A DNA stretch of 45,389 nt from a virus (IMGVR_UViG_3300042923_001252:1-45389), one strand, 5' to 3'. Shown: positions 3,131 through 23,242, numbered from the stretch's first letter. The notes: generated from the letters alone by a model not told the origin. Translations and numbers: made by a program.

Positions 3131-3580
3131 TTAATAGATGTTTCTGGTTGTGTCCATGTTTTCACCATAGAAACTTCCTAGATCACCTTGATCATCATCA
3201 GCACTGTATATGTCTGATGATCCTGGTACATAAGTTTGTGGATTTAAGGTCGTTAAGTAATTGCACATTGACTCAAATTGTTTTTGATCAGTTATAAAAC
3301 GCTTATGATAGTCATCCCCTTCTCTACCTGCATTTTGTATCAACATAACGGGTTTTCCTTCGAACCACACGGAAGCAATCGCCCAAAATCTCCGAGGATC
3401 GAACCAAAAATAGCGATAAAATTTTATAACTATTTTTTTATTCTTTTTGCCCATGTCGTACAATGGAGCCCAACCATTGAAATACTGATCTATCAATTCC
3501 TCCACATGATTTTGTAAGATCTCCAAGTCATTTATTTCTTCTTTTATTGGTTCCATGTTATAGAAGTCACTTATTTTCAT
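3131..3580 (-). CDS. Hypothetical protein
   Basis: 149-aa ORF in the early operon. No motif recognised. Confidence 0.55.
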   Translation of the reverse strand: MKISDFYNMEPIKEEINDLEILQNHVEELIDQYFNGWAPLYDMGKKNKKIVIKFYRYFWFDPRRFWAIASVWFEGKPVMLIQNAGREGDDYHKRFITDQKQFESMCNYLTTLNPQTYVPGSSDIYSADDDQGDLGSFYGENMDTTRNIY

Positions 3581-3730
3581 TCAGGCATTAACCTCACTAG
3601 GATCACAAAGAACATTTTCCCGATAGTTTAATAAAATCAGTTCATCTGTCATATGATCCCAATAATCACGTGTACATCCCTGACAAACCATTAACCATTC
3701 GATCATCATATCTCTGTCACTTTTTTGCAT
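3581..3730 (-). CDS. Small Cys-containing hypothetical protein
   Basis: ATG 3730 lies 7 nt after GGAGG. The stop abuts the start of the next gene. Confidence 0.45.
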   Translation of the reverse strand: MQKSDRDMMIEWLMVCQGCTRDYWDHMTDELILLNYRENVLCDPSEVNA

Positions 3731-12203: not shown

Positions 12204-12596
12204 ATGAGCGAGTTTGGAATGTATATAAAAAAAATAAGAGAATCAAAAGGATTAACCCTTAACCAAACTGCATTGTATTCAGGGATAAGCGCTGCTCAGC
12301 TGTCACGAATCGAAAATGGAAAAAGAGGTGTTCCAAAGCCTCCTACAATTAAAGCACTATCTGAAGCATTAAAAGTTAGTTATGAAGTACTTATGGAAAA
12401 AGCAGGATATATTGAGGACATAAATAATGATAGATCTGAGCTAACGGCCGATAGTGAACTTAAAAGTCTAATGAATGATCCTGACTTTATGGTTGCCTAT
12501 AAGGAATATCCTGGTAGTCCGGAGGAAGCAAAAGAGGATTTGATAGGCTTCCTCAAACTAATCAAGGAACGTGACGAACGTAAAAGAAAGAAGTAA
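12204..12596 (+). CDS. CI-like XRE-family repressor (ImmR-type)
   Basis: IKKIRESKGLTLNQTALYSGISAAQLSRIENGKR HTH with a C-terminal extension. Heads the plus-strand lysogeny operon that ends in the integrase. Confidence 0.85.
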   Translation: MSEFGMYIKKIRESKGLTLNQTALYSGISAAQLSRIENGKRGVPKPPTIKALSEALKVSYEVLMEKAGYIEDINNDRSELTADSELKSLMNDPDFMVAYKEYPGSPEEAKEDLIGFLKLIKERDERKRKK

Positions 12597-12630: not shown

Positions 12631-12644
12631 CGAACGGACGTTCC
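12631..12644. promoter_or_regulatory. LexA (Cheo/SOS) box upstream of the membrane-protein/ImmA unit
   Basis: CGAACGGACGTTCC fits the Bacillus consensus CGAACRNRYGTTYC at every position. Confidence 0.55.
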
Positions 12645-13138: not shown

Positions 13139-13251
13139 AAATATCAATAATGCTTAAAATTTATTAAATGTTAAACTGGTCATTTGCCCTTTGGGGCTTT
13201 TATTTAGACTTTAAAAAGGAACATACGTTCACATCATTAAGGGGATTATTC

Positions 13252-13863
13252 ATGTACAGTAAAACTGATCTTGAAGATTATGTTGAAACTCTATATCGCT
13301 CAATCGGGATTAATCACCCGGATCACCTAATTATGAATGAGGTCGCACAGCGATTAAATATAGAAGTTATTCATTCTGAGTATAAAAGCCAAGCATTAAG
13401 AATTAAAAATCGAATGATAGTTAACTTAAACTGCAATTTAAAAAGTTATGTTGACCAGTGGGAAATATTTGGACATGAGATATTTCATGTGTTAAAGGAT
13501 ACTGGTAATCAATCTCTTATTCCCGTACTGCTAAGAGAACTACGGGAATCAAAAGCAAAAAACTTTGCCCTTCACTTCTGTATCCCGACGTTTATGCTAG
13601 AAAAAATCGACTGGAAAGAAGAAAATACAATTCCGTTCATTGCAGAAAGATTTCAGGTCACTTATGCCTTTGCCACGGAACGACTTGAACAGTATAGAAA
13701 TCGAATTATTCAAAGCCAAACAGATGATTTAGTTGCAGTCACTGAACCATCAGCGTCTTATCACATAGATAACTGTTCATACGAAACTAGACGGATCATT
13801 GAGCAATTAAGAATTCAACTTAATCGAAAGGGTGAGAAACTTGAATTCAAAAGTTTATTATGA
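13252..13863 (+). CDS. ImmA/IrrE-family zinc metalloprotease (anti-repressor protease)
   Basis: HEIFH (HExxH) within WEIFGHEIFHVL. Size and context (downstream of the XRE repressor) match ImmR/ImmA pairs. ATG 13252 follows AAGGGGA. Confidence 0.8.
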   Translation: MYSKTDLEDYVETLYRSIGINHPDHLIMNEVAQRLNIEVIHSEYKSQALRIKNRMIVNLNCNLKSYVDQWEIFGHEIFHVLKDTGNQSLIPVLLRELRESKAKNFALHFCIPTFMLEKIDWKEENTIPFIAERFQVTYAFATERLEQYRNRIIQSQTDDLVAVTEPSASYHIDNCSYETRRIIEQLRIQLNRKGEKLEFKSLL

Positions 13864-15832: not shown

Positions 15833-15916
15833 GTGTCATATCCTTATATCAAACAAGTAAATAACCACATCTCCCCTCTTTATCTGTATAATATGGATAA
15901 TGGAGGGGATTTCATT

Positions 15917-17491
15917 ATGGATCGATACGCCATTTATTTGAGGAAAAGCCGCGCTGATTTGGAAGCTGAGGCGCGCGGTGAAGGCGAAACATTGGCAAAG
16001 CATAAACGTGTGCTATTCAGGTATGCCAAAGATAATAAGCTAAATATTGTTAAGCTATATGAGGAAGTTGTCTCTGGGGAAAGTGTTATTCATCGTCCTA
16101 AGATGATTCAGCTGCTTAATGATGTAGATGATGATATGTATGATGGTGTTTTATGTATGGATATGGACCGGCTCGGGCGCGGTGATATGCAGGATCAAGG
16201 ATTGATCCTGAACACCTTTAAGAACTCGAATACGAAGATAATTACGCCTCGCAAGACTTATGACCTCAATAACGAAATTGACGAGGAATACAGTGAATTT
16301 GAGACGTTTATCGCACGACGCGAGTTAAAGATTATTACTCGTCGGTTACAAGGTGGTCGACTTGAGACAGTACAAGAAGGTTGGTACATCGGATCCTATC
16401 CACCACTAGGCTATAGTATAAAGTACCTTGACAAAGGAAAACGTACTCTAGAAGAAAACGAAAAACAATCACCTATAGTTCGATTGATTTTTGAGTTGTA
16501 TACCTCTGACGATCCAAGCAAACGACTAGGTAGCGCGCGAATCGCTAATAAATTAAATGAACTTGGGTATGAAAAATATACTGGTGGACCATTTAATAGT
16601 TGGGACGTTCTAAATATTATTAAAAACGCCGTATATGCTGGCCGTATTCAGTGGAAAAGGAAAGAGATTAAGAAGTCAACCGAACCCGGTAAGAAGAAAG
16701 ACACACGTACTCGCCCACGTTCTGAATGGATTGACGTAAAAGGGAAACACGAACCTCTAATAAGTATGGAAGTTTATCAAAAGGCGCAAGATATATTGGC
16801 TAATAGATCTCATCCCCCTTTTCACTTGAGCGGTATTAAAAATCCTTTAGCTGGTATCTTAAAGTGTGGCAATTGTGGTTCGACAATGGTACTTAGACCG
16901 TATACAACACAAAAGCCCCACCTGATGTGCGCCAAACAAAAACAGTGTCACCTAAAATCAACACAGTTTGATCTAGTCGAACAGCGATTATTAGATTCAC
17001 TTAATGAATATCTTGAAAGCTATAAAAATCAATGGCTTGAAACAAAACCAACCAAAAAAAGTGAACATACTCTAGAAATGTGGCATAACACATTGAATGG
17101 ACTGAAAAAAGAAAATGACATGATACAAACACAACAAACAAAATTATTTGATCTCTTGGAAAGAGGCATATATACCGAAGAAATATTTATAGAACGATCA
17201 AATAATCTGGCTGAACGAATTGAGACAAATACAAATGCAATAAAAAAAGCTCAAGCTGAACTTATCGATGAGGAGAAACGTCAACAAGCTCGAAATGATA
17301 TCATCCCAACTGTTGAACGAGTTCTTGACTTGTATCCAAAAACTGATGATCCTGCTCAAAAGAACATGTTGCTTAAATCTGTTCTCGAAAAAGCAGTGTA
17401 TTTTAAGTCAAAAGGCCAATTTAAGGATGATTTTAAACTTGTGATCTATCCAAACATCAAGCGTAGCAAGGGTTTTCAAGCACAGATATAA
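15917..17491 (+). CDS. Large serine recombinase (SprA/TP901-type phage integrase)
   Basis: Resolvase-type N-terminus AIYLRKSRADLE..GETL..H (catalytic Ser), recombinase domain, Cys-rich CGNCGS..C..C zinc ribbon and coiled-coil C-terminus. ATG 15917 follows GGAGGGGA. Confidence 0.9.
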   Translation: MDRYAIYLRKSRADLEAEARGEGETLAKHKRVLFRYAKDNKLNIVKLYEEVVSGESVIHRPKMIQLLNDVDDDMYDGVLCMDMDRLGRGDMQDQGLILNTFKNSNTKIITPRKTYDLNNEIDEEYSEFETFIARRELKIITRRLQGGRLETVQEGWYIGSYPPLGYSIKYLDKGKRTLEENEKQSPIVRLIFELYTSDDPSKRLGSARIANKLNELGYEKYTGGPFNSWDVLNIIKNAVYAGRIQWKRKEIKKSTEPGKKKDTRTRPRSEWIDVKGKHEPLISMEVYQKAQDILANRSHPPFHLSGIKNPLAGILKCGNCGSTMVLRPYTTQKPHLMCAKQKQCHLKSTQFDLVEQRLLDSLNEYLESYKNQWLETKPTKKSEHTLEMWHNTLNGLKKENDMIQTQQTKLFDLLERGIYTEEIFIERSNNLAERIETNTNAIKKAQAELIDEEKRQQARNDIIPTVERVLDLYPKTDDPAQKNMLLKSVLEKAVYFKSKGQFKDDFKLVIYPNIKRSKGFQAQI

Positions 17492-17530
17492 AGTGAAGGG
17501 TAACACAATACCCTTCACTTTATATCTGTG
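17481..17530. repeat. Perfect 22-bp inverted repeat with a 6-nt spacer overlapping the integrase stop codon (candidate attP and/or terminator)
   Basis: CACAGATATAAAGTGAAGGGTA-acacaa-TACCCTTCACTTTATATCTGTG. The arms are exact reverse complements. Confidence 0.85.
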
Positions 17531-17720
17531 TTTCTAGTTATCTTCATTAATGAACGTTAAAAACGTACATATGTATGGAGAAGAATGGATTGGATATGAA
17601 GCCAAATTTGAATAAAGATAATAATTGTGAAACATTAATCATAGCTTTTTAACTCGTAAACTAACCGTTAGCAAACAAGTGTTATAAATTTATATCGGGA
17701 TAAAATATCCTCTTATATTG

Positions 17721-17756
17721 AAAAAACTCATCCACGAAATCAGGATGAGTTTTTTC
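17721..17756. terminator. Bidirectional rho-independent terminator
   Basis: AAAAAACTCATCC-acgaaatca-GGATGAGTTTTTT. Sits directly after the stop of the minus-strand WYL gene and faces the integrase operon. Confidence 0.8.
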
Positions 17757-17937
17757 ATGCACTTCGGACAATGCGCCTAGCAAGAATATTACCTAATTGA
17801 AAAATACGAACTTGCCGGCGCGTGTAACAATATGCTTTTACATATGTCTCTTTTGCTTCAATCACGCGTATGTTTCGCTGAGTTATTTTTCCATTCTTCG
17901 CCTGATAAATAATTTCTATTACATCGCCATTTCTCAT
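17755..17937 (-). CDS. Stand-alone WYL-domain protein (60 aa)
   Basis: IEIIYQAKNGKITQRNIRVIEAKETYVKAYCYTRRQVRIFQLGNI follows the WYL signature (..Y....G..T.R.i.....yl.AYC..r...R.F.l..I). ATGA overlap with the upstream wHTH gene. Confidence 0.65.
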   Translation of the reverse strand: MRNGDVIEIIYQAKNGKITQRNIRVIEAKETYVKAYCYTRRQVRIFQLGNILARRIVRSA

Positions 17938-18134
17938 GATGAGATCCTCACAGTACGATTCATGTTTTCCTCAAAATCGATCCGTCCTTCTTTTTTCAAA
18001 CGATCTAAATGATGCTTGACTGTACTTGTTGATTTTAGTCCTACATATTCTCCGATTTCCTTTATAGACGGTGCGTATCCGTGTTTTATGGTTAGGAACT
18101 CTATCGCTTCTATGATTAATTCTCTTCGATTCAT
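17934..18134 (-). CDS. LexA-N-terminal-like winged-HTH protein lacking the S24 peptidase domain
   Basis: GYAPSIKEIGEYVGLKSTSTVKHHLDRLKKEGRI matches the LexA DNA-binding domain pattern. Only 66 aa. ATG 18134 follows AGAGGTGA. Confidence 0.7.
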   Translation of the reverse strand: MNRRELIIEAIEFLTIKHGYAPSIKEIGEYVGLKSTSTVKHHLDRLKKEGRIDFEENMNRTVRISS

Positions 18135-18160
18135 CTTCATCACCTCTATCTCAATTATAA

Positions 18161-18212
18161 CGAACATATGTTTTTATTTCCAGTATAAAAAGAACGTTTG
18201 TTCGTGTATAAT
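18161..18212. promoter_or_regulatory. Divergent promoter region with two LexA (Cheo) boxes and a TATAAT -10
   Basis: CGAACATATGTTTT (18161..18174) matches the ideal CGAACATATGTTCG at 12 of 14 positions. AGAACGTTTGTTCG (18191..18204) has a perfect GAAC-N4-GTTC core. Centres are 30 bp apart. TATAAT at 18207..18212 faces the polymerase gene. Confidence 0.75.
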
Positions 18213-18244
18213 AAAGACATTCTTCTTACCGGGGATGGTGAATT

Positions 18245-19471
18245 ATGGATCGAGTCATTTTCCTAGTTGATATGCAGACATTTTATGCATCTGTTGAAAA
18301 AGCAGATCATCCTGAATATCGTGATAGGCCGCTAATCGTCGCCGGAGATCCAAAACAGCGTAGCGGTATCGTATTGGCAGCATGTCCAATCGCTAAAAGC
18401 TGTGGTGTTCGAACGGCCGAGGGACTATGGGAAGCACGGAAAAAGTGTCCTCAAGCAGTTATCCGGATCCCACGTATGCAGCATTATATTGATGTCTCAA
18501 TCAAAATCACTTCAATTTTAGAGAAATTCACTGATTTGGTTGAACCATATAGCATCGATGAGCAATTTATGGATGTGACTGATAGTCAGCTTTTGTTTGG
18601 TAGTCCGTTCGAAGTTGCTCAGAAAGTACAGAAACAAATTGCAGATGAAATTGGCGTCTATGCACGTGTCGGCATTGGTTCGAGCAAGGTCATGGCAAAA
18701 ATGGCGTGTGACAACTTCGCCAAAAAGAACATCGATGGTATCTTTGAGTTGACGAAAAATAACATACAACAATATCTCTGGCCGCTCCCGATCTCAAAAA
18801 TGTTCAGCGTTGGCAATCGAATGGAAGAAAATTTAATCGGAATGGGAATCCGAACGATTGAACATTTGGCGAACAGTCCGATAAAACTACTGCAGGATCG
18901 TTGGGGAATAAATGGAACATTATTATGGATGACAGCCCACGGATTGGACTACTCTCCTGTTACGCCAAGCACATTTAAGGAACAGAAAGCCATCGGTCAT
19001 CATATGACTCTGCCGCGCGACTATGCCAATGAAAAGGATATTCGTGTGATTATACTCGAATTGAGCGAAGAGGTGGCGCACCGTGCACGAAAAAAGGGCT
19101 ATATGGGCAATGTTGTTGCTGCCGGAATAACCGGTCAATACGATCGACATACAGGATTTTATCGACAAATGAAGCTTGATACATCCACAAATTATGGATT
19201 AGACATTTACCATGCTGCCTTGCGATTATTTGCCGACAATTGGGATCGTGAGCCGGTACGTGGGGTATCCGTCACCCTCTCAGACCTCCAACCGGTATCT
19301 CCTTACCAGCTGGATATATTCGGAGAAGTTGAACGAAAAAGTCAACTAAGTGCTGCCGTTGATGCTATTTATAATAAATATGGCAAGACTGCCATTTACC
19401 GAGGAACGTCCCTATTACCAGGTTCTCAATGGGACAATCGTGCTGGAAAAATTGGAGGGCATTTTAAATGA
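18245..19471 (+). CDS. Y-family (UmuC/DinB/UvrX-like) translesion DNA polymerase
   Basis: VDMQTFYASVE and SIDEQFMDVT catalytic motifs. 408 aa, with palm/fingers/little-finger-sized architecture. Confidence 0.9.
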   Translation: MDRVIFLVDMQTFYASVEKADHPEYRDRPLIVAGDPKQRSGIVLAACPIAKSCGVRTAEGLWEARKKCPQAVIRIPRMQHYIDVSIKITSILEKFTDLVEPYSIDEQFMDVTDSQLLFGSPFEVAQKVQKQIADEIGVYARVGIGSSKVMAKMACDNFAKKNIDGIFELTKNNIQQYLWPLPISKMFSVGNRMEENLIGMGIRTIEHLANSPIKLLQDRWGINGTLLWMTAHGLDYSPVTPSTFKEQKAIGHHMTLPRDYANEKDIRVIILELSEEVAHRARKKGYMGNVVAAGITGQYDRHTGFYRQMKLDTSTNYGLDIYHAALRLFADNWDREPVRGVSVTLSDLQPVSPYQLDIFGEVERKSQLSAAVDAIYNKYGKTAIYRGTSLLPGSQWDNRAGKIGGHFK

Positions 19472-19824
19472 AGGCAAATAAGTTAACTAGAGGCGCTAAT
19501 TTACGGTGGGAATCAAGTCGAATGATGCTGCCGGAACACGTAGCAGCACTTAAAAAGCATACAATTAATAAGATGAAAATAGATTGTCCTATCCTCTCTG
19601 ATGACGAGCTAGAACAGATAGGTAATATGCTTAATGAAGCCTTACAAAGGCGCTATCCAGTTGAATTATCTTACTACAAGGACGGATTTATTAAGCAAAA
19701 GATTTGCTATATAAGCAAACTAGATCCGATCTACAAGCAATTGACGGTTAGCGATATGTACGGTCTTAAGTGGCAATATGACTTTAAAGATATTGTTGGA
19801 GTTCAGCTCAGCAATGATGTCTGA
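19468..19824 (+). CDS. YolD-like protein (UmuD-analogous accessory factor)
   Basis: LRWESSRMMLPEHVAALKKH motif typical of the YolD family. ATGA overlap with the polymerase stop. Confidence 0.75.
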   Translation: MKANKLTRGANLRWESSRMMLPEHVAALKKHTINKMKIDCPILSDDELEQIGNMLNEALQRRYPVELSYYKDGFIKQKICYISKLDPIYKQLTVSDMYGLKWQYDFKDIVGVQLSNDV

Positions 19825-20110
19825 GAAAGAAGCGATTATCGCTACAGAATATGCTCTCTTACCGCTTATTAGACGAGCATTAGAGATCTATCGTAAAGCT
19901 TTTGCTAACTCCGGACTTAAGTTCCGCAGCTCCTACATTGCACAATTAGATGAAGCGTTACACCTAGTTACGGACGACATGTGTAAAAATAAGCAAGAGA
20001 TTTTTAAGTACCACATCCGCATGGAAAAGAAAAACTGGCTTAATTATGAGGTATATGTAAGTGGTCAGTTGTTTGATTTTGCTTACCCAAAATACGTTGC
20101 CGCTGACTAG
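19814..20110 (+). CDS. Hypothetical protein, third gene of the polymerase cassette
   Basis: ATG 19814/19817 overlaps the YolD-like stop. No motif. Confidence 0.5.
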   Translation: MMSEKEAIIATEYALLPLIRRALEIYRKAFANSGLKFRSSYIAQLDEALHLVTDDMCKNKQEIFKYHIRMEKKNWLNYEVYVSGQLFDFAYPKYVAAD

Positions 20111-20245
20111 ATTAATGAATGTGCGAAGGAGTATTTTTAAATTTAATAAAATACTGACAAAAATAACAAATATCAATTGTGTATAATTTTTAATTTCCCG
20201 AAGAAAATATCAATATGATTAAAACAAATTTGAAGGGTGATTAAT

Positions 20246-20725
20246 TTGAAAAAGAGTATAAATTTAACGCAATTTATGAAGTTCGTGTCCTTTTTGGCGC
20301 TTGTAACATGTATATGGGGGATATGGGGAAGTAACTCGTTAGCTCAACATTTTAAATATGATCCTATTCGCATCGGCAGGGTAAATCAATCTGTTTCAGA
20401 TCAAGGAATTAAATTTTCGATCCAAAAATATTCTGTTGATGGGAATAGGCTAAATGTTTTCTACACTATTGACTTAATAAATAATAAGAAAAGTAATGAA
20501 CCAAGTGGTTTTTTGATGGAAGTCCCAGATATTATGGTAAATAACCAAAAAATTTCTTCCTCTAATCAAGTTCAAACTGGTAAAAAAATTAGTGCAAGAG
20601 AGTTTGCAGGTCGTGTGGAAACTAGACTTCCCATCAATATCCCCAAAAAATTTAAGGTAACGTTTAACACTGATCAAATTCTTGGTCAAGCCGGTCAATG
20701 GACAATCCCATTCTATATTAAATAA
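20246..20725 (+). CDS. Membrane-anchored/secreted hypothetical protein (moron)
   Basis: TTG 20246 lies 5 nt after GAAGGGTGA. N-terminal TM FMKFVSFLALVTCIWGIWG is followed by a beta-rich domain. TATAAT at 20182..20187 lies upstream. Confidence 0.55.
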   Translation: MKKSINLTQFMKFVSFLALVTCIWGIWGSNSLAQHFKYDPIRIGRVNQSVSDQGIKFSIQKYSVDGNRLNVFYTIDLINNKKSNEPSGFLMEVPDIMVNNQKISSSNQVQTGKKISAREFAGRVETRLPINIPKKFKVTFNTDQILGQAGQWTIPFYIK

Positions 20726-21525: not shown

Positions 21526-21924
21526 TCATTTTGCTTTAAGCACGGCCTGCTCTATCAGTTGCGGAATCAGACATTCAATGTCGCCAATAGCTGATTTTCC
21601 GAGGGCAATCAATTCAGGTGCTTGAGCGATCACAGCTTTGACAGCTTCTTCTTTAACGCTTGCAGCAAACTCAGATGTAAATGCTCCTTTTGCTTTGGCA
21701 TCAGAAACTACACGCTGGTTAAAATCGGCTACAACTGTTTGAGCAATGGAAGATAGTCCATCAATCACCCTATTGGCGATGTCAGCCTGTGAAGTGCTCA
21801 GGTGCTTGTCCACTGCGTCTTTAATCTTTGGCATGAATGAGACAACCACAGCCCCTACTCCTGCAACCAATACAGATAGAACTGCAGTTAGTACTTGTAC
21901 TCCTAAATCTTGCACAATAATCAT
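21526..21924 (-). CDS. Single-TM membrane protein, LL-H-type holin-like
   Basis: N-terminal TM LTAVLSVLVAGVGAVVVSF followed by a hydrophilic Ala/Lys-rich tail. Last gene of the lysis cassette. The start may be GTG 21915. Confidence 0.45.
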   Translation of the reverse strand: MIIVQDLGVQVLTAVLSVLVAGVGAVVVSFMPKIKDAVDKHLSTSQADIANRVIDGLSSIAQTVVADFNQRVVSDAKAKGAFTSEFAASVKEEAVKAVIAQAPELIALGKSAIGDIECLIPQLIEQAVLKAK

Positions 21925-21928
21925 CCTT

Positions 21929-23242
21929 TCAATATTTTAATTTCATCCCTGGACGAATGAGATCCGAGCGCAGATGATTTTTGTTTTTCAAATTGCTGAC
22001 GGTCGTTTTCAAGTGCTTTGCAATAGTCCACAAGTTATCGTTTTTTTTAACGACATACGGCTTTTTTGTAGCCTTCTTGACTGCCTTTTTCGTAATCAAA
22101 ACGCTAGATACATAGTTTTTGTTTGCAGTCAGATAAAATCCGCTAGAAACTTTGAGACGTGGAGTGCTGGCTTTACTGTATTCGATACTTTTTACCGTGA
22201 ATTCTGTACCCTTTTTAAAGAAGCGAAGACGATATTTTTGATCAAATTGAATTGATCGATACAGTCCGGCTGTTTTCGTCAATTTGACGCGCTTTGCACT
22301 CGTGATATAGTGCTGCTTGATCAGGTCAATTACTTTGACTTTGGCAGGCTTAATACCAGCTTTCAACTTCGCCAAAAGTGCGATATTTTGCGCAGCTGAT
22401 CCTTTATAATCGATAATTCCATACTGTTTCGCAAGCTTCAACCGGTCTTTATACAACCACCCTTTACCCTTAGTCTTAAGGTAGTTTACTAGACTTACAC
22501 TGCCGATCTTTCCAACTTTAGAAGATACCGCTCCGGTGTATTTGCCCGCATAATCGATGCTCACATCAAAAGATTTGTTGACACCGTCGATCGTGTATAC
22601 ATAAGAGCTAGACCATTGGTGAGCACCGCGTTCATTACCTGGATCAAGTACCGTTTTGCCATCAGATGCATATCGAGCAAGCCAAGGCTGTTTATTGCTC
22701 AGCTTAGACGCTACAAGTCGATTCTCGTAAAAGCTTTTTCCTGTATAGATGTCAGTGCGATCATAACCGAGTTTATGCATTTCATCCAAAAAGGCATTGA
22801 CGTAGCTGGTCAGCTTGTCCGCGTCTTTAGTTAGCGATCGCTCCTCTATATCGAGGACTACATAACCGTCATTGGTCTTGCTAAAACCGTCTACCTGCAG
22901 ATTTTTGTCAAACCACTGGGCTTCTGCTTCAGCGTCTGAAATGCTTGTCAGCAGACCATAGTGATACACAGACACACGCAATCCAGCAGCTCGTGCATTG
23001 GCGATGTTGACAGACGCAGACGGATCACGATACGTATTACCCTGTGATACTTTAAACGCTGCGCCATCGGTACCCGCGCGCTTGATCGTTTGAAAATAGC
23101 TGATTGGTAGACCGTTGATTGATTGGTAATGACTAGCATCGATGAAGTCTACTTTTCCTGTCTCCGCACTTGCCGGTAGACAAAAAGAAAACGCCAGTGC
23201 CAGGCATAGCACCAGCGCCGAGAAATATTTGATTTTCTTCAC
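21929..23242 (-). CDS. Endolysin: signal peptide + GH25 muramidase + wall-binding region + C-terminal LysM
   Basis: MKKIKYFSALVLCLALAFSFCLPASA signal. DFIDASHYQ..FKVSQG..YRD..AAGLRVSVYHY..VLDIEE GH25 pattern. YVVKKNDNLWTIAKHL..IRPGMKLKY LysM. Confidence 0.85.
   Translation of the reverse strand: MKKIKYFSALVLCLALAFSFCLPASAETGKVDFIDASHYQSINGLPISYFQTIKRAGTDGAAFKVSQGNTYRDPSASVNIANARAAGLRVSVYHYGLLTSISDAEAEAQWFDKNLQVDGFSKTNDGYVVLDIEERSLTKDADKLTSYVNAFLDEMHKLGYDRTDIYTGKSFYENRLVASKLSNKQPWLARYASDGKTVLDPGNERGAHQWSSSYVYTIDGVNKSFDVSIDYAGKYTGAVSSKVGKIGSVSLVNYLKTKGKGWLYKDRLKLAKQYGIIDYKGSAAQNIALLAKLKAGIKPAKVKVIDLIKQHYITSAKRVKLTKTAGLYRSIQFDQKYRLRFFKKGTEFTVKSIEYSKASTPRLKVSSGFYLTANKNYVSSVLITKKAVKKATKKPYVVKKNDNLWTIAKHLKTTVSNLKNKNHLRSDLIRPGMKLKY

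Follow-up and report, generated by a model that had tools for sequence, protein, structure and literature searches.

The genes described here lie within IMGVR_UViG_3300042923_001252:1-45389, a viral DNA stretch of 45,389 nt that was analysed as a whole (the window) and represents a temperate Bacillales phage, probably with a Sporolactobacillus-like host. Between positions 17755 and 20110 it carries a LexA-boxed cassette of a UvrX/YqjW-type Y-family polymerase and a YolD protein, firmly of the kind known from Bacillus prophages. Equally firm is that two small genes, conserved as a pair and so far uncharacterised, are joined to this cassette. The first encodes a LexA-type DNA-binding domain (DBD) of the winged helix-turn-helix (wHTH) class, the second a single WYL domain, hereafter mini-WYL. 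Gene content, domain identities, fold, conservation of the module and box enrichment are documented below; that the cassette is SOS-inducible we infer. The features are the following.

17755-17937, minus strand: mini-WYL gene, 60 aa, single WYL domain
17934-18134, minus strand: wHTH gene (LexA-DBD-only), 66 aa, start ATG 18134 (MNRR...)
18135-18244: divergent control region, 110 bp, between the wHTH and polymerase genes
18162-18173: leftward LexA box GAACATATGTTT, Cheo-type, one mismatch, wHTH/mini-WYL promoter
18192-18203: rightward LexA box GAACGTTTGTTC, Cheo-type, perfect, polymerase promoter
18245-19471, plus strand: Y-family translesion polymerase gene (UvrX/YqjW-type), 408 aa
19468-19824, plus strand: YolD-family gene, 118 aa; Pfam YolD, 80.5 bits; phrog_3352
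19814-20110, plus strand: third cassette open reading frame (ORF), 98 aa, no family match
17719-17757: bidirectional terminator hairpin, arms TGAAAAAACTCATCC / GGATGAGTTTTTTCA

A first-pass annotation of the sequence had read the rightward unit as a polymerase, a YolD-like protein and a 98-aa ORF, divergent from the small genes, and this layout stands. The polymerase is recognised by Pfam IMS (149.6 bits), IMS_C (82.3 bits) and IMS_HHH, by NCBIfam PRK03103 (618.7 bits) and by PHROG phrog_1268, and its translation contains the catalytic motifs DMQTFYASVE and SIDEQFMDVT. Its stop codon and the start codon of the YolD gene share an ATGA.

The same annotation described the 66-aa protein as a LexA N-terminal winged helix without the S24 autocleavage domain, which is what domain searches recover. 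The longest frame spans 17934-18167 on the minus strand and includes an upstream ATG that abuts the ribosome-binding site; the start at 18134 lies 6 nt past that site (GAGGTG, 18146-18141) and is conserved in five related loci. The product matches Pfam LexA_DNA_bind with 53 bits (E 3e-14), aligns with the LexA proteins of P. aeruginosa (8s7g) and plasmid pAT1, and stops at residue 66, just past the wing, with S24 absent. On the lexA model TIGR00498 it reaches 51.4 bits against a cut-off of 110.95, covering only model positions 7-69 of 203. Because the S24 domain is missing, the protein is, judged by its sequence, not a LexA, and for the same reason it should be uncleavable. Its recognition helix reads STSTVKHHL, that of Bacillales LexA (pAT1) SSSTVHGHL. 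Two helix positions differ from LexA and vary within the family (K/Q/A/H/S/F and H/S/G/A/D); the corresponding residues of E. coli LexA contact operator bases. Short LexA-DBD-only ORFs (68-145 aa) are frequent in viral contigs and make up about 50 of the 80 best relatives (L040-L119, where L numbers denote individual loci). One DBD, that of Bacillus phage 11143 (L037, 2486-2957), has the helix SSSTVHGHL, the same as Bacillales LexA; its gene is followed by an overlapping 82-aa ORF that has no match to the mini-WYL profile.

The wHTH stop codon and the mini-WYL start codon share an ATGA (17934-17937), the translational coupling that had been pointed out at the outset. The proposed WYL identity of the downstream 60-aa protein is borderline in Pfam and clear in the predicted fold. 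Its PF13280 score of 21.6 bits (E 2e-4) falls 0.2 below the gathering cut-off of 21.8; WYL is matched at E<=0.01 by 41 of 80 family representatives (best 9e-7), and precomputed PF13280 hits are present on several homologues. Given the family alignment, AlphaFold2 (AF2) predicts a five-strand SH3/Sm-like barrel with a predicted local distance difference test (pLDDT) score of 97.7. The first 17 Foldseek matches are WYL domains of PafBC, CapW and BrxR (query TM scores 0.72-0.82, the best 0.75-0.82), with Hfq next; the WYL domain of DriD ranks lower, and a structure of CapW with single-stranded DNA (ssDNA), 9c5g, is among the matches.

An exhaustive HMMER search collected 236 cluster representatives of this family at E<=1e-3, nearly all of which are 60-80 aa long and free-standing; when the 60-aa sequence was used in a word-indexed protein search, the query itself was the sole match. 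Homologues carry the public names "hypothetical protein", "WYL domain-containing protein" or "YafY-like" and come from Neobacillus, Niallia, Robertmurraya, Pontibacillus, Virgibacillus, Sutcliffiella, Heyndrickxia and Sporolactobacillus, and also from Bacillales plasmids. Mini-WYL is a member of an uncharacterised Bacillales family of 60-75-aa proteins. In the alignment of 80 representatives on which the conservation counts are based, the consensus is EIIYxxxxGxxTQRxIxV...AYCYxRxxxRxFxxxNIL, with R21, C37 and F46 invariant. Along the ligand channel, R21 and C37 are each found in 80/80 sequences, R44 in 79/80, R or K at position 40 in 71/80, and K or R at position 47 in 44/80, the window protein having Q there.

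The closest PDB sequence matches of the mini-WYL profile are the WYL domains of Pif1 helicases (8bnv and 8bns; DdPif1, SsPif1; E 8e-8). In TePif1, residues R470, C494, R501 and R504 are needed for ssDNA binding, which the R470A/C494A/R501A/R504A mutant loses, and the isolated WYL domain binds ssDNA and does not bind double-stranded DNA. The corresponding DdPif1 residues (R464, C488, R495, R498) align with mini-WYL R21, C37, R44 and position 47, and their spacing is the same if an 8-residue insert of DdPif1 is discounted. On the strength of the fold matches, the Pif1 match and the conserved channel residues, mini-WYL is a genuine WYL domain with its ligand channel intact. Since the channel is conserved and the nearest characterised relative is the Pif1 WYL domain, mini-WYL probably binds ssDNA as well. 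The protein ends about 2 residues past strand 5, with neither a helix-turn-helix (HTH) nor a WCX extension, and for lack of both it lies outside the HTH-WYL-WCX regulator family. A barrel-only protein encoded next to a 66-aa DBD gene agrees with the earlier description of HTH and WYL parts as separate minimal polypeptides.

Other identities were considered for these proteins. Long family matches that might have been fusions are either ORF calls over-extended through the SOS box, with N-termini such as MFVYNK that are the translated box and TATAAT, or TM-WYL (transmembrane-WYL) proteins. Among the larger relatives, the product of L019 (756-1283; 175 aa) begins with a hydrophobic, putatively membrane-spanning segment and ends in a WYL domain, and protein P0088 (221 aa) combines a hydrophobic N-terminus with two WYL repeats. 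According to published work, YolD belongs to a WYL-like superfamily at a remote level only. The comparison of the mini-WYL and YolD profiles (hhalign) gives a probability of 8%, which is not significant, and mini-WYL is not claimed as a YolD paralogue. A standalone ImuB-C domain has been reported next to UmuC/YolD; Pfam supports this identity neither for mini-WYL nor for the third ORF, and mini-WYL is without the conserved C-terminal Trp. The last residue of mini-WYL proteins (17755-17760 in the window) is A, S or G in 57/80 cases, for example in ...RSA, ...KGA and ...RVS, and the C-termini of wHTH proteins read ...ISS, ...VVS or ...IVS. Such ends could be protease degrons (ClpXP-type) that limit the lifetime of both proteins after SOS.

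The two units diverge from the 110-bp control region, in which two Cheo-type boxes (GAAC-N4-GTTC) lie 30 bp apart, one per transcription unit, as first proposed. A promoter scan places a good leftward promoter at TGGAAA (18182-18177) and TATAAT (18159-18154), separated by a 17-nt spacer in which the leftward box sits. The rightward promoter has its -10 element, TATAAT, at 18207-18212 and a weak -35; its box lies between the two positions and ends 3 nt before the TATAAT, the proximity to which had already been remarked upon. One half-site of the leftward box is imperfect, the same half-site being imperfect in homologous loci, and the perfect rightward box is conserved in L001, L003 and L014. 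A 19-nt imperfect inverted repeat spans both boxes, and six loci share an almost unchanged promoter/operator core of 75 bp, although identity of their mini-WYL proteins to the one in the window is just 57-68%. No operator candidate besides the boxes was found in the control region; as the region is one large imperfect palindrome, near-invariant in close loci, locus comparison cannot separate sites within it. Perfect boxes number 3 in the window, where 0.62 would be expected; 1 of 100 shuffles reached this count. Host LexA alone suffices to explain the two boxes of the control region, because the same boxes are found at loci with no wHTH and at that of Paenibacillus phage Fern, whose wHTH homologue has an unrelated recognition helix and yet retains two canonical boxes.

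The wider distribution of the pair was established by a census of 43 non-redundant mini-WYL loci, annotated with hidden Markov models built from the cassette families. They were drawn from close wHTH homologues, a genome scan, exact-protein look-ups, phage and plasmid records and a wHTH-seeded viral scan; the genome scan, with a 10-sequence alignment, yielded 6 loci and a degenerate DNA pattern run on viral contigs 20. At least one Cheo-type box lies within 420 bp upstream in 38 of the 43, where the background expectation is 0.02 boxes per interval of that kind. A LexA-DBD-type wHTH is directly adjacent to mini-WYL in 19/43 loci, and in 11/35 of the subset seeded on mini-WYL alone. The wHTH gene comes first in nine cases (the window, L001, L003, L004, L006, L014, L040, L042, L083). 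Mini-WYL comes first in ten, including L009 (Robertmurraya), L017, L026, L044, L047, L048, L052, L098, Psychrobacillus phage PVJ1 and phage Fern; the B. subtilis plasmid pNIB353_1, outside the 43, has this order too. Start and stop codons of the paired genes overlap wherever checked, and lineages with such pairs are only 40-50% identical. In PVJ1 and L048 a single operon runs from mini-WYL through wHTH and the Y-family polymerase to YolD. The Aneurinibacillus thermoaerophilus plasmid pAT1 (NZ_CP080765; L122, 1842-2683) has a full-length lexA of 207 aa (LexA_DNA_bind and Peptidase_S24) behind a Cheo box and, 11 bp later, a 68-aa mini-WYL gene. As the coupling survives inversion of the gene order and recurs in this lexA-mini-WYL operon, mini-WYL appears to work with LexA-type DBDs.

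The genes opposite the wHTH-first pair vary. They are polymerase, YolD and third gene in the window and L014, polymerase and YolD without the third gene in L001, YolD alone in L004, and only the third-ORF family in L006, L040-42, L045 and L092. Varied cargo facing a constant pair is as expected of a regulator facing the genes it regulates. YolD is found near mini-WYL in more than half of the loci. On the viral contig L031, two mini-WYL genes (1-228 and 3356-3583) are separated by about 3 kb. Both have a Cheo box of their own in front, and one of the two genes is followed by YolD.

The reading favoured here, held tentatively and with somewhat less than even confidence, is that of a LexA-gated translesion cassette with a second layer, in which a non-cleavable LexA-type DBD is tuned by an ssDNA-sensing mini-WYL. 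Host LexA would hold both divergent sigma-A-type promoters off until its RecA-dependent cleavage, since each promoter has a Cheo-type operator. The leftward pair would then constitute a two-polypeptide regulator composed of the uncleavable 66-aa LexA DBD and the 60-aa WYL barrel. The barrel would take ssDNA through the R21/C37/R40/R44 channel and join the LexA-type DBD, making promoter binding dependent on the ssDNA that remains. As long as ssDNA persists, the pair would be inactive; once it is gone, the pair would re-repress its own and the polymerase promoters before the LexA pool recovers. The outcome would be a RecA-independent shut-off of the mutagenic enzyme.

Negative feedback that re-locks the polymerase promoter is the most likely direction of control, because the single-operon arrangement of PVJ1 and L048 favours autorepression, because CapW and BrxR are repressors relieved by their ligand, and because the pair's own box is the weaker one, so that the pair would be expressed earlier or leakily. 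The opposite sign has a precedent in gp6 of phage GIL01, the nearest DBD-only LexA homologue to have been studied. This 66-aa protein activates the late genes of the phage through a palindrome of its own, at a promoter also repressed by host LexA via tandem boxes; gp6-like activation at the polymerase promoter with its weak -35 may be the alternative. Least certain in this model are whether the pair represses or, like gp6, activates, and which operator the wHTH recognises.

The split HTH-plus-WYL regulator of the first-pass annotation is plausible, with partial support. The conserved, coupled pair, its occurrence in both orders and the ssDNA-type channel fit it; the loci that have mini-WYL and no wHTH do not. 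The latter head a list of observations that weigh against a two-polypeptide regulator. No wHTH lies beside mini-WYL in 24 of the 43 loci, so the basic function of mini-WYL cannot require this wHTH. At about a dozen loci mini-WYL is followed by YolD without a wHTH (for example Virgibacillus necropolis and phage Mimir87; also L010, L015, L016, L021, L024, L025 and L030-33), and solitary copies lie in the core chromosome, in L007 beside miaA-hfq and in Neobacillus L011-13. Only 10-12 of the roughly 50 short LexA-DBD ORFs adjoin a mini-WYL gene, most being unpartnered, and there is no natural wHTH-WYL fusion among the best 150 of the 236 representatives. Canonical WYL regulators dimerise via WCX, the domain missing in mini-WYL. 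Finally, the boxes are equal with or without a wHTH, or with a diverged helix, and thus give no sign of wHTH binding.

Several of these observations suit the main alternative, which is possible, if rather unlikely. In it mini-WYL, instead of regulating, would be an effector made in the SOS response that binds ssDNA and acts together with YolD and the Y-family polymerase. It might target or stabilise the mutasome on ssDNA gaps, or modulate RecA filaments in a DinI-like manner, and the wHTH would be a separate, self-sufficient factor sharing the operon. Operons of mini-WYL and YolD without wHTH are among the commonest arrangements, YolD is frequent at mini-WYL loci in general, and the solitary chromosomal copies (L007, L011-13) are SOS-boxed. 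The closest sequence relatives of mini-WYL, moreover, belong to a DNA enzyme (Pif1), in which they serve as an accessory module for binding ssDNA, and not to a regulator, and GIL01 gp6, a DBD-only LexA homologue, binds DNA unaided. Co-expression alone, however, poorly explains coupling to a wHTH in both orders and once to a full-length lexA. Some pairs, too, have neither YolD nor a polymerase in their vicinity (L017, L026, L098, L121 and, apart from a truncated polymerase, L003), and the 8% obtained in the YolD profile comparison gives no sign of a paralogous hetero-oligomer.

A bolder proposal, which is improbable on present evidence, concerns the mini-WYL family as a whole. The family would be an unrecognised core component of the Bacillales SOS circuit, an SOS-induced ssDNA sensor that docks on LexA-type DBDs and feeds the persistence of ssDNA back to operator occupancy independently of RecA cleavage. 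Its docking targets would be host LexA in trans or DBD-only copies on mobile elements in cis. The wHTH and mini-WYL would then stand to LexA as YolD has been proposed to stand to UmuD, forming an S24-free parallel of LexA/UmuD within the WYL superfamily, and phages would use the two proteins to time a mutagenic polymerase.

It had also been suggested that the wHTH competes with host LexA on the same boxes. In this scenario an uncleavable LexA-like DBD would occupy the Cheo boxes of host LexA, perhaps genome-wide, as a surrogate or competitor that damps or prolongs SOS. The closeness of STSTVKHHL to SSSTVHGHL, the LexA equivalog score of 51 bits across the DBD and a feedback loop implied by the wHTH gene itself lying behind a LexA box speak for it. 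The comparison of loci yielded no positive evidence of such competition, and the suggestion is quite unlikely: two helix positions differ from LexA and vary in the family, Fern keeps canonical boxes with an unrelated helix, identical boxes occur at loci with no wHTH, and a monomeric DBD would be without LexA's dimerisation domain. GIL01 gp6, an activator and no competitor of LexA, has evolved its own palindrome as operator. Least probable are LexA-controlled antirepressors of the Tum, Ant or Sar type that couple prophage induction to damage, a pattern of small proteins behind LexA boxes in prophages that is known for Sar of SPbeta-like phages; this was rejected, since the family also occurs on core chromosomes (L007, L011-13) and plasmids away from prophage switches, is conserved across elements with unrelated repressors and has a WYL fold and basic channel that point to a nucleic-acid ligand, and since the phage has its own XRE repressor and ImmA-like M78 peptidase module with LexA boxes.

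That lysogeny module contains the further perfect Cheo boxes of the window. One (12632-12643) falls in the gap that separates the XRE-type repressor gene (12204-12596) from the following ORF, and the other (13219-13230) at the 5' end of the ImmA/IrrE-like M78 peptidase gene (13168-13863). These two perfect boxes suggest that the induction switch of the phage is under LexA control as well. The polymerase cassette itself is placed between a serine recombinase gene (15833-17491) and lysis genes (endolysin, 21929-23242); the DBD pair of phage 11143 likewise lies between recombinase and lysis genes. A neighbouring 132-aa ORF (21526-21924) has no family match, and a DNA search of 17500-20300 against 50,697 phage records gave no match. 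The leftward two-gene operon ends at the terminator (17719-17757), identified by a repeat search as a hairpin with perfect 15-nt arms and a 9-nt loop, which overlaps the stop codon of the mini-WYL gene.

The third cassette ORF most likely starts at 19814, giving 98 aa, and has no match in Pfam, PHROG, NCBIfam or PADLOC. It belongs to a recurring unnamed family of 100-135 aa. Homologues stand opposite the wHTH-first pair in L006 (3334-3717) and the other loci named above, opposite a mini-WYL-YolD operon in L030 (4133-4501), and after YolD in L120 (493-864). The TAG of the window ORF (20108-20110) falls at the position of a Trp conserved in seven homologues (...A(A/V)DWI..ER.K.Y...), and read-through past it continues the frame with INECAKEYF, followed by TAA. 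Because of this position and the continuing frame, the ORF seems to carry a TGG-to-TAG nonsense change or a sequencing error, at the loss of about 9 last residues. A single-sequence AF2 model shows two long helices and a three-strand sheet at pLDDT 63.9, too poor for a fold search.

In Actinobacteria and Proteobacteria, ssDNA-sensing WYL proteins are known to regulate the damage response independently of SOS; in Firmicutes, by the current view, this response depends on LexA alone. The cassette points to free-standing WYL proteins inside the Bacillales LexA regulon, in a family whose genes are linked to those of LexA-type DNA-binding heads and of YolD, a protein that accompanies error-prone polymerases in Gram-positive bacteria and is itself poorly understood. 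Should the pair gate or time a phage-borne mutagenic polymerase, it would add a new control layer on the mutation rates of lysogens and provide a minimal two-piece model of signalling from a WYL domain to a DBD. The module is widespread, SOS-linked and easily tested, and bears on the role of YolD; as all its components measure 60-70 aa, they are convenient for biochemistry and structural work. Searches of full-text literature returned no account of free-standing WYL proteins, of a LexA-DBD/WYL pair or of such genes in YolD/polymerase operons.

The most obvious relatives of the pair are the HTH-WYL-WCX regulators (PafBC, DriD, SiwR, CapW, BrxR), which make transcription respond to ssDNA or another ligand in the context of DNA damage or defence; DriD, PafBC and CapW are reported to sense ssDNA. 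They share with the pair the WYL barrel fold, a basic ligand channel and a winged-helix DNA-binding partner. In contrast to these regulators, HTH and WYL are separate minimal polypeptides here, the HTH is a LexA-type DBD where DeoR/HTH_11 is usual, there is no WCX domain for dimerisation, and mini-WYL is also found without an HTH partner. They are SOS-independent, whereas the pair lies behind LexA boxes.

GIL01 gp6 resembles the wHTH in being phage-borne, DBD-only, 66 aa long and encoded upstream of a very small regulatory protein. It differs in sequence (25% identity, helix SHKTAHRYL). The gene directly downstream of gp6 encodes gp7, a 50-aa LexA-binding co-repressor with no detectable sequence similarity to mini-WYL. 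The cargo of the GIL01 circuit consists of virion and lysis genes, that of the present locus of a polymerase.

For mini-WYL alone, the WYL domains of Pif1 (TePif1, DdPif1, SsPif1) provide the nearest model, with the R...C...R..R channel at the same spacing and the N-terminal helix seen in the 70-75-aa members of the mini-WYL family. Unlike mini-WYL, which is free-standing and the product of an SOS-boxed gene, they are fused to a helicase and monomeric, and their fourth basic residue is replaced by Q in the window protein.

The rightward unit has its counterparts in the Bacillus cassettes (SPbeta yolD-uvrX, yqjX-yqjW, yozL-yozK), which are prophage-borne, have a LexA box and combine YolD with a polymerase of the same subfamily; the papers found on them mention neither a divergent wHTH/mini-WYL pair nor a third small gene. 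Acinetobacter UmuDAb with DdrR offers a further parallel, being reported as a LexA-family repressor with a very small co-regulator at a divergent locus that controls error-prone polymerase genes. UmuDAb, unlike the wHTH, retains the S24 cleavage domain, recognises an atypical operator and belongs to another phylum, and DdrR is not known to be a WYL protein. The kinds of system to which the cassette is akin are WYL regulators of DNA damage, truncated homologues of LexA and the YolD/UvrX cassettes of prophages.

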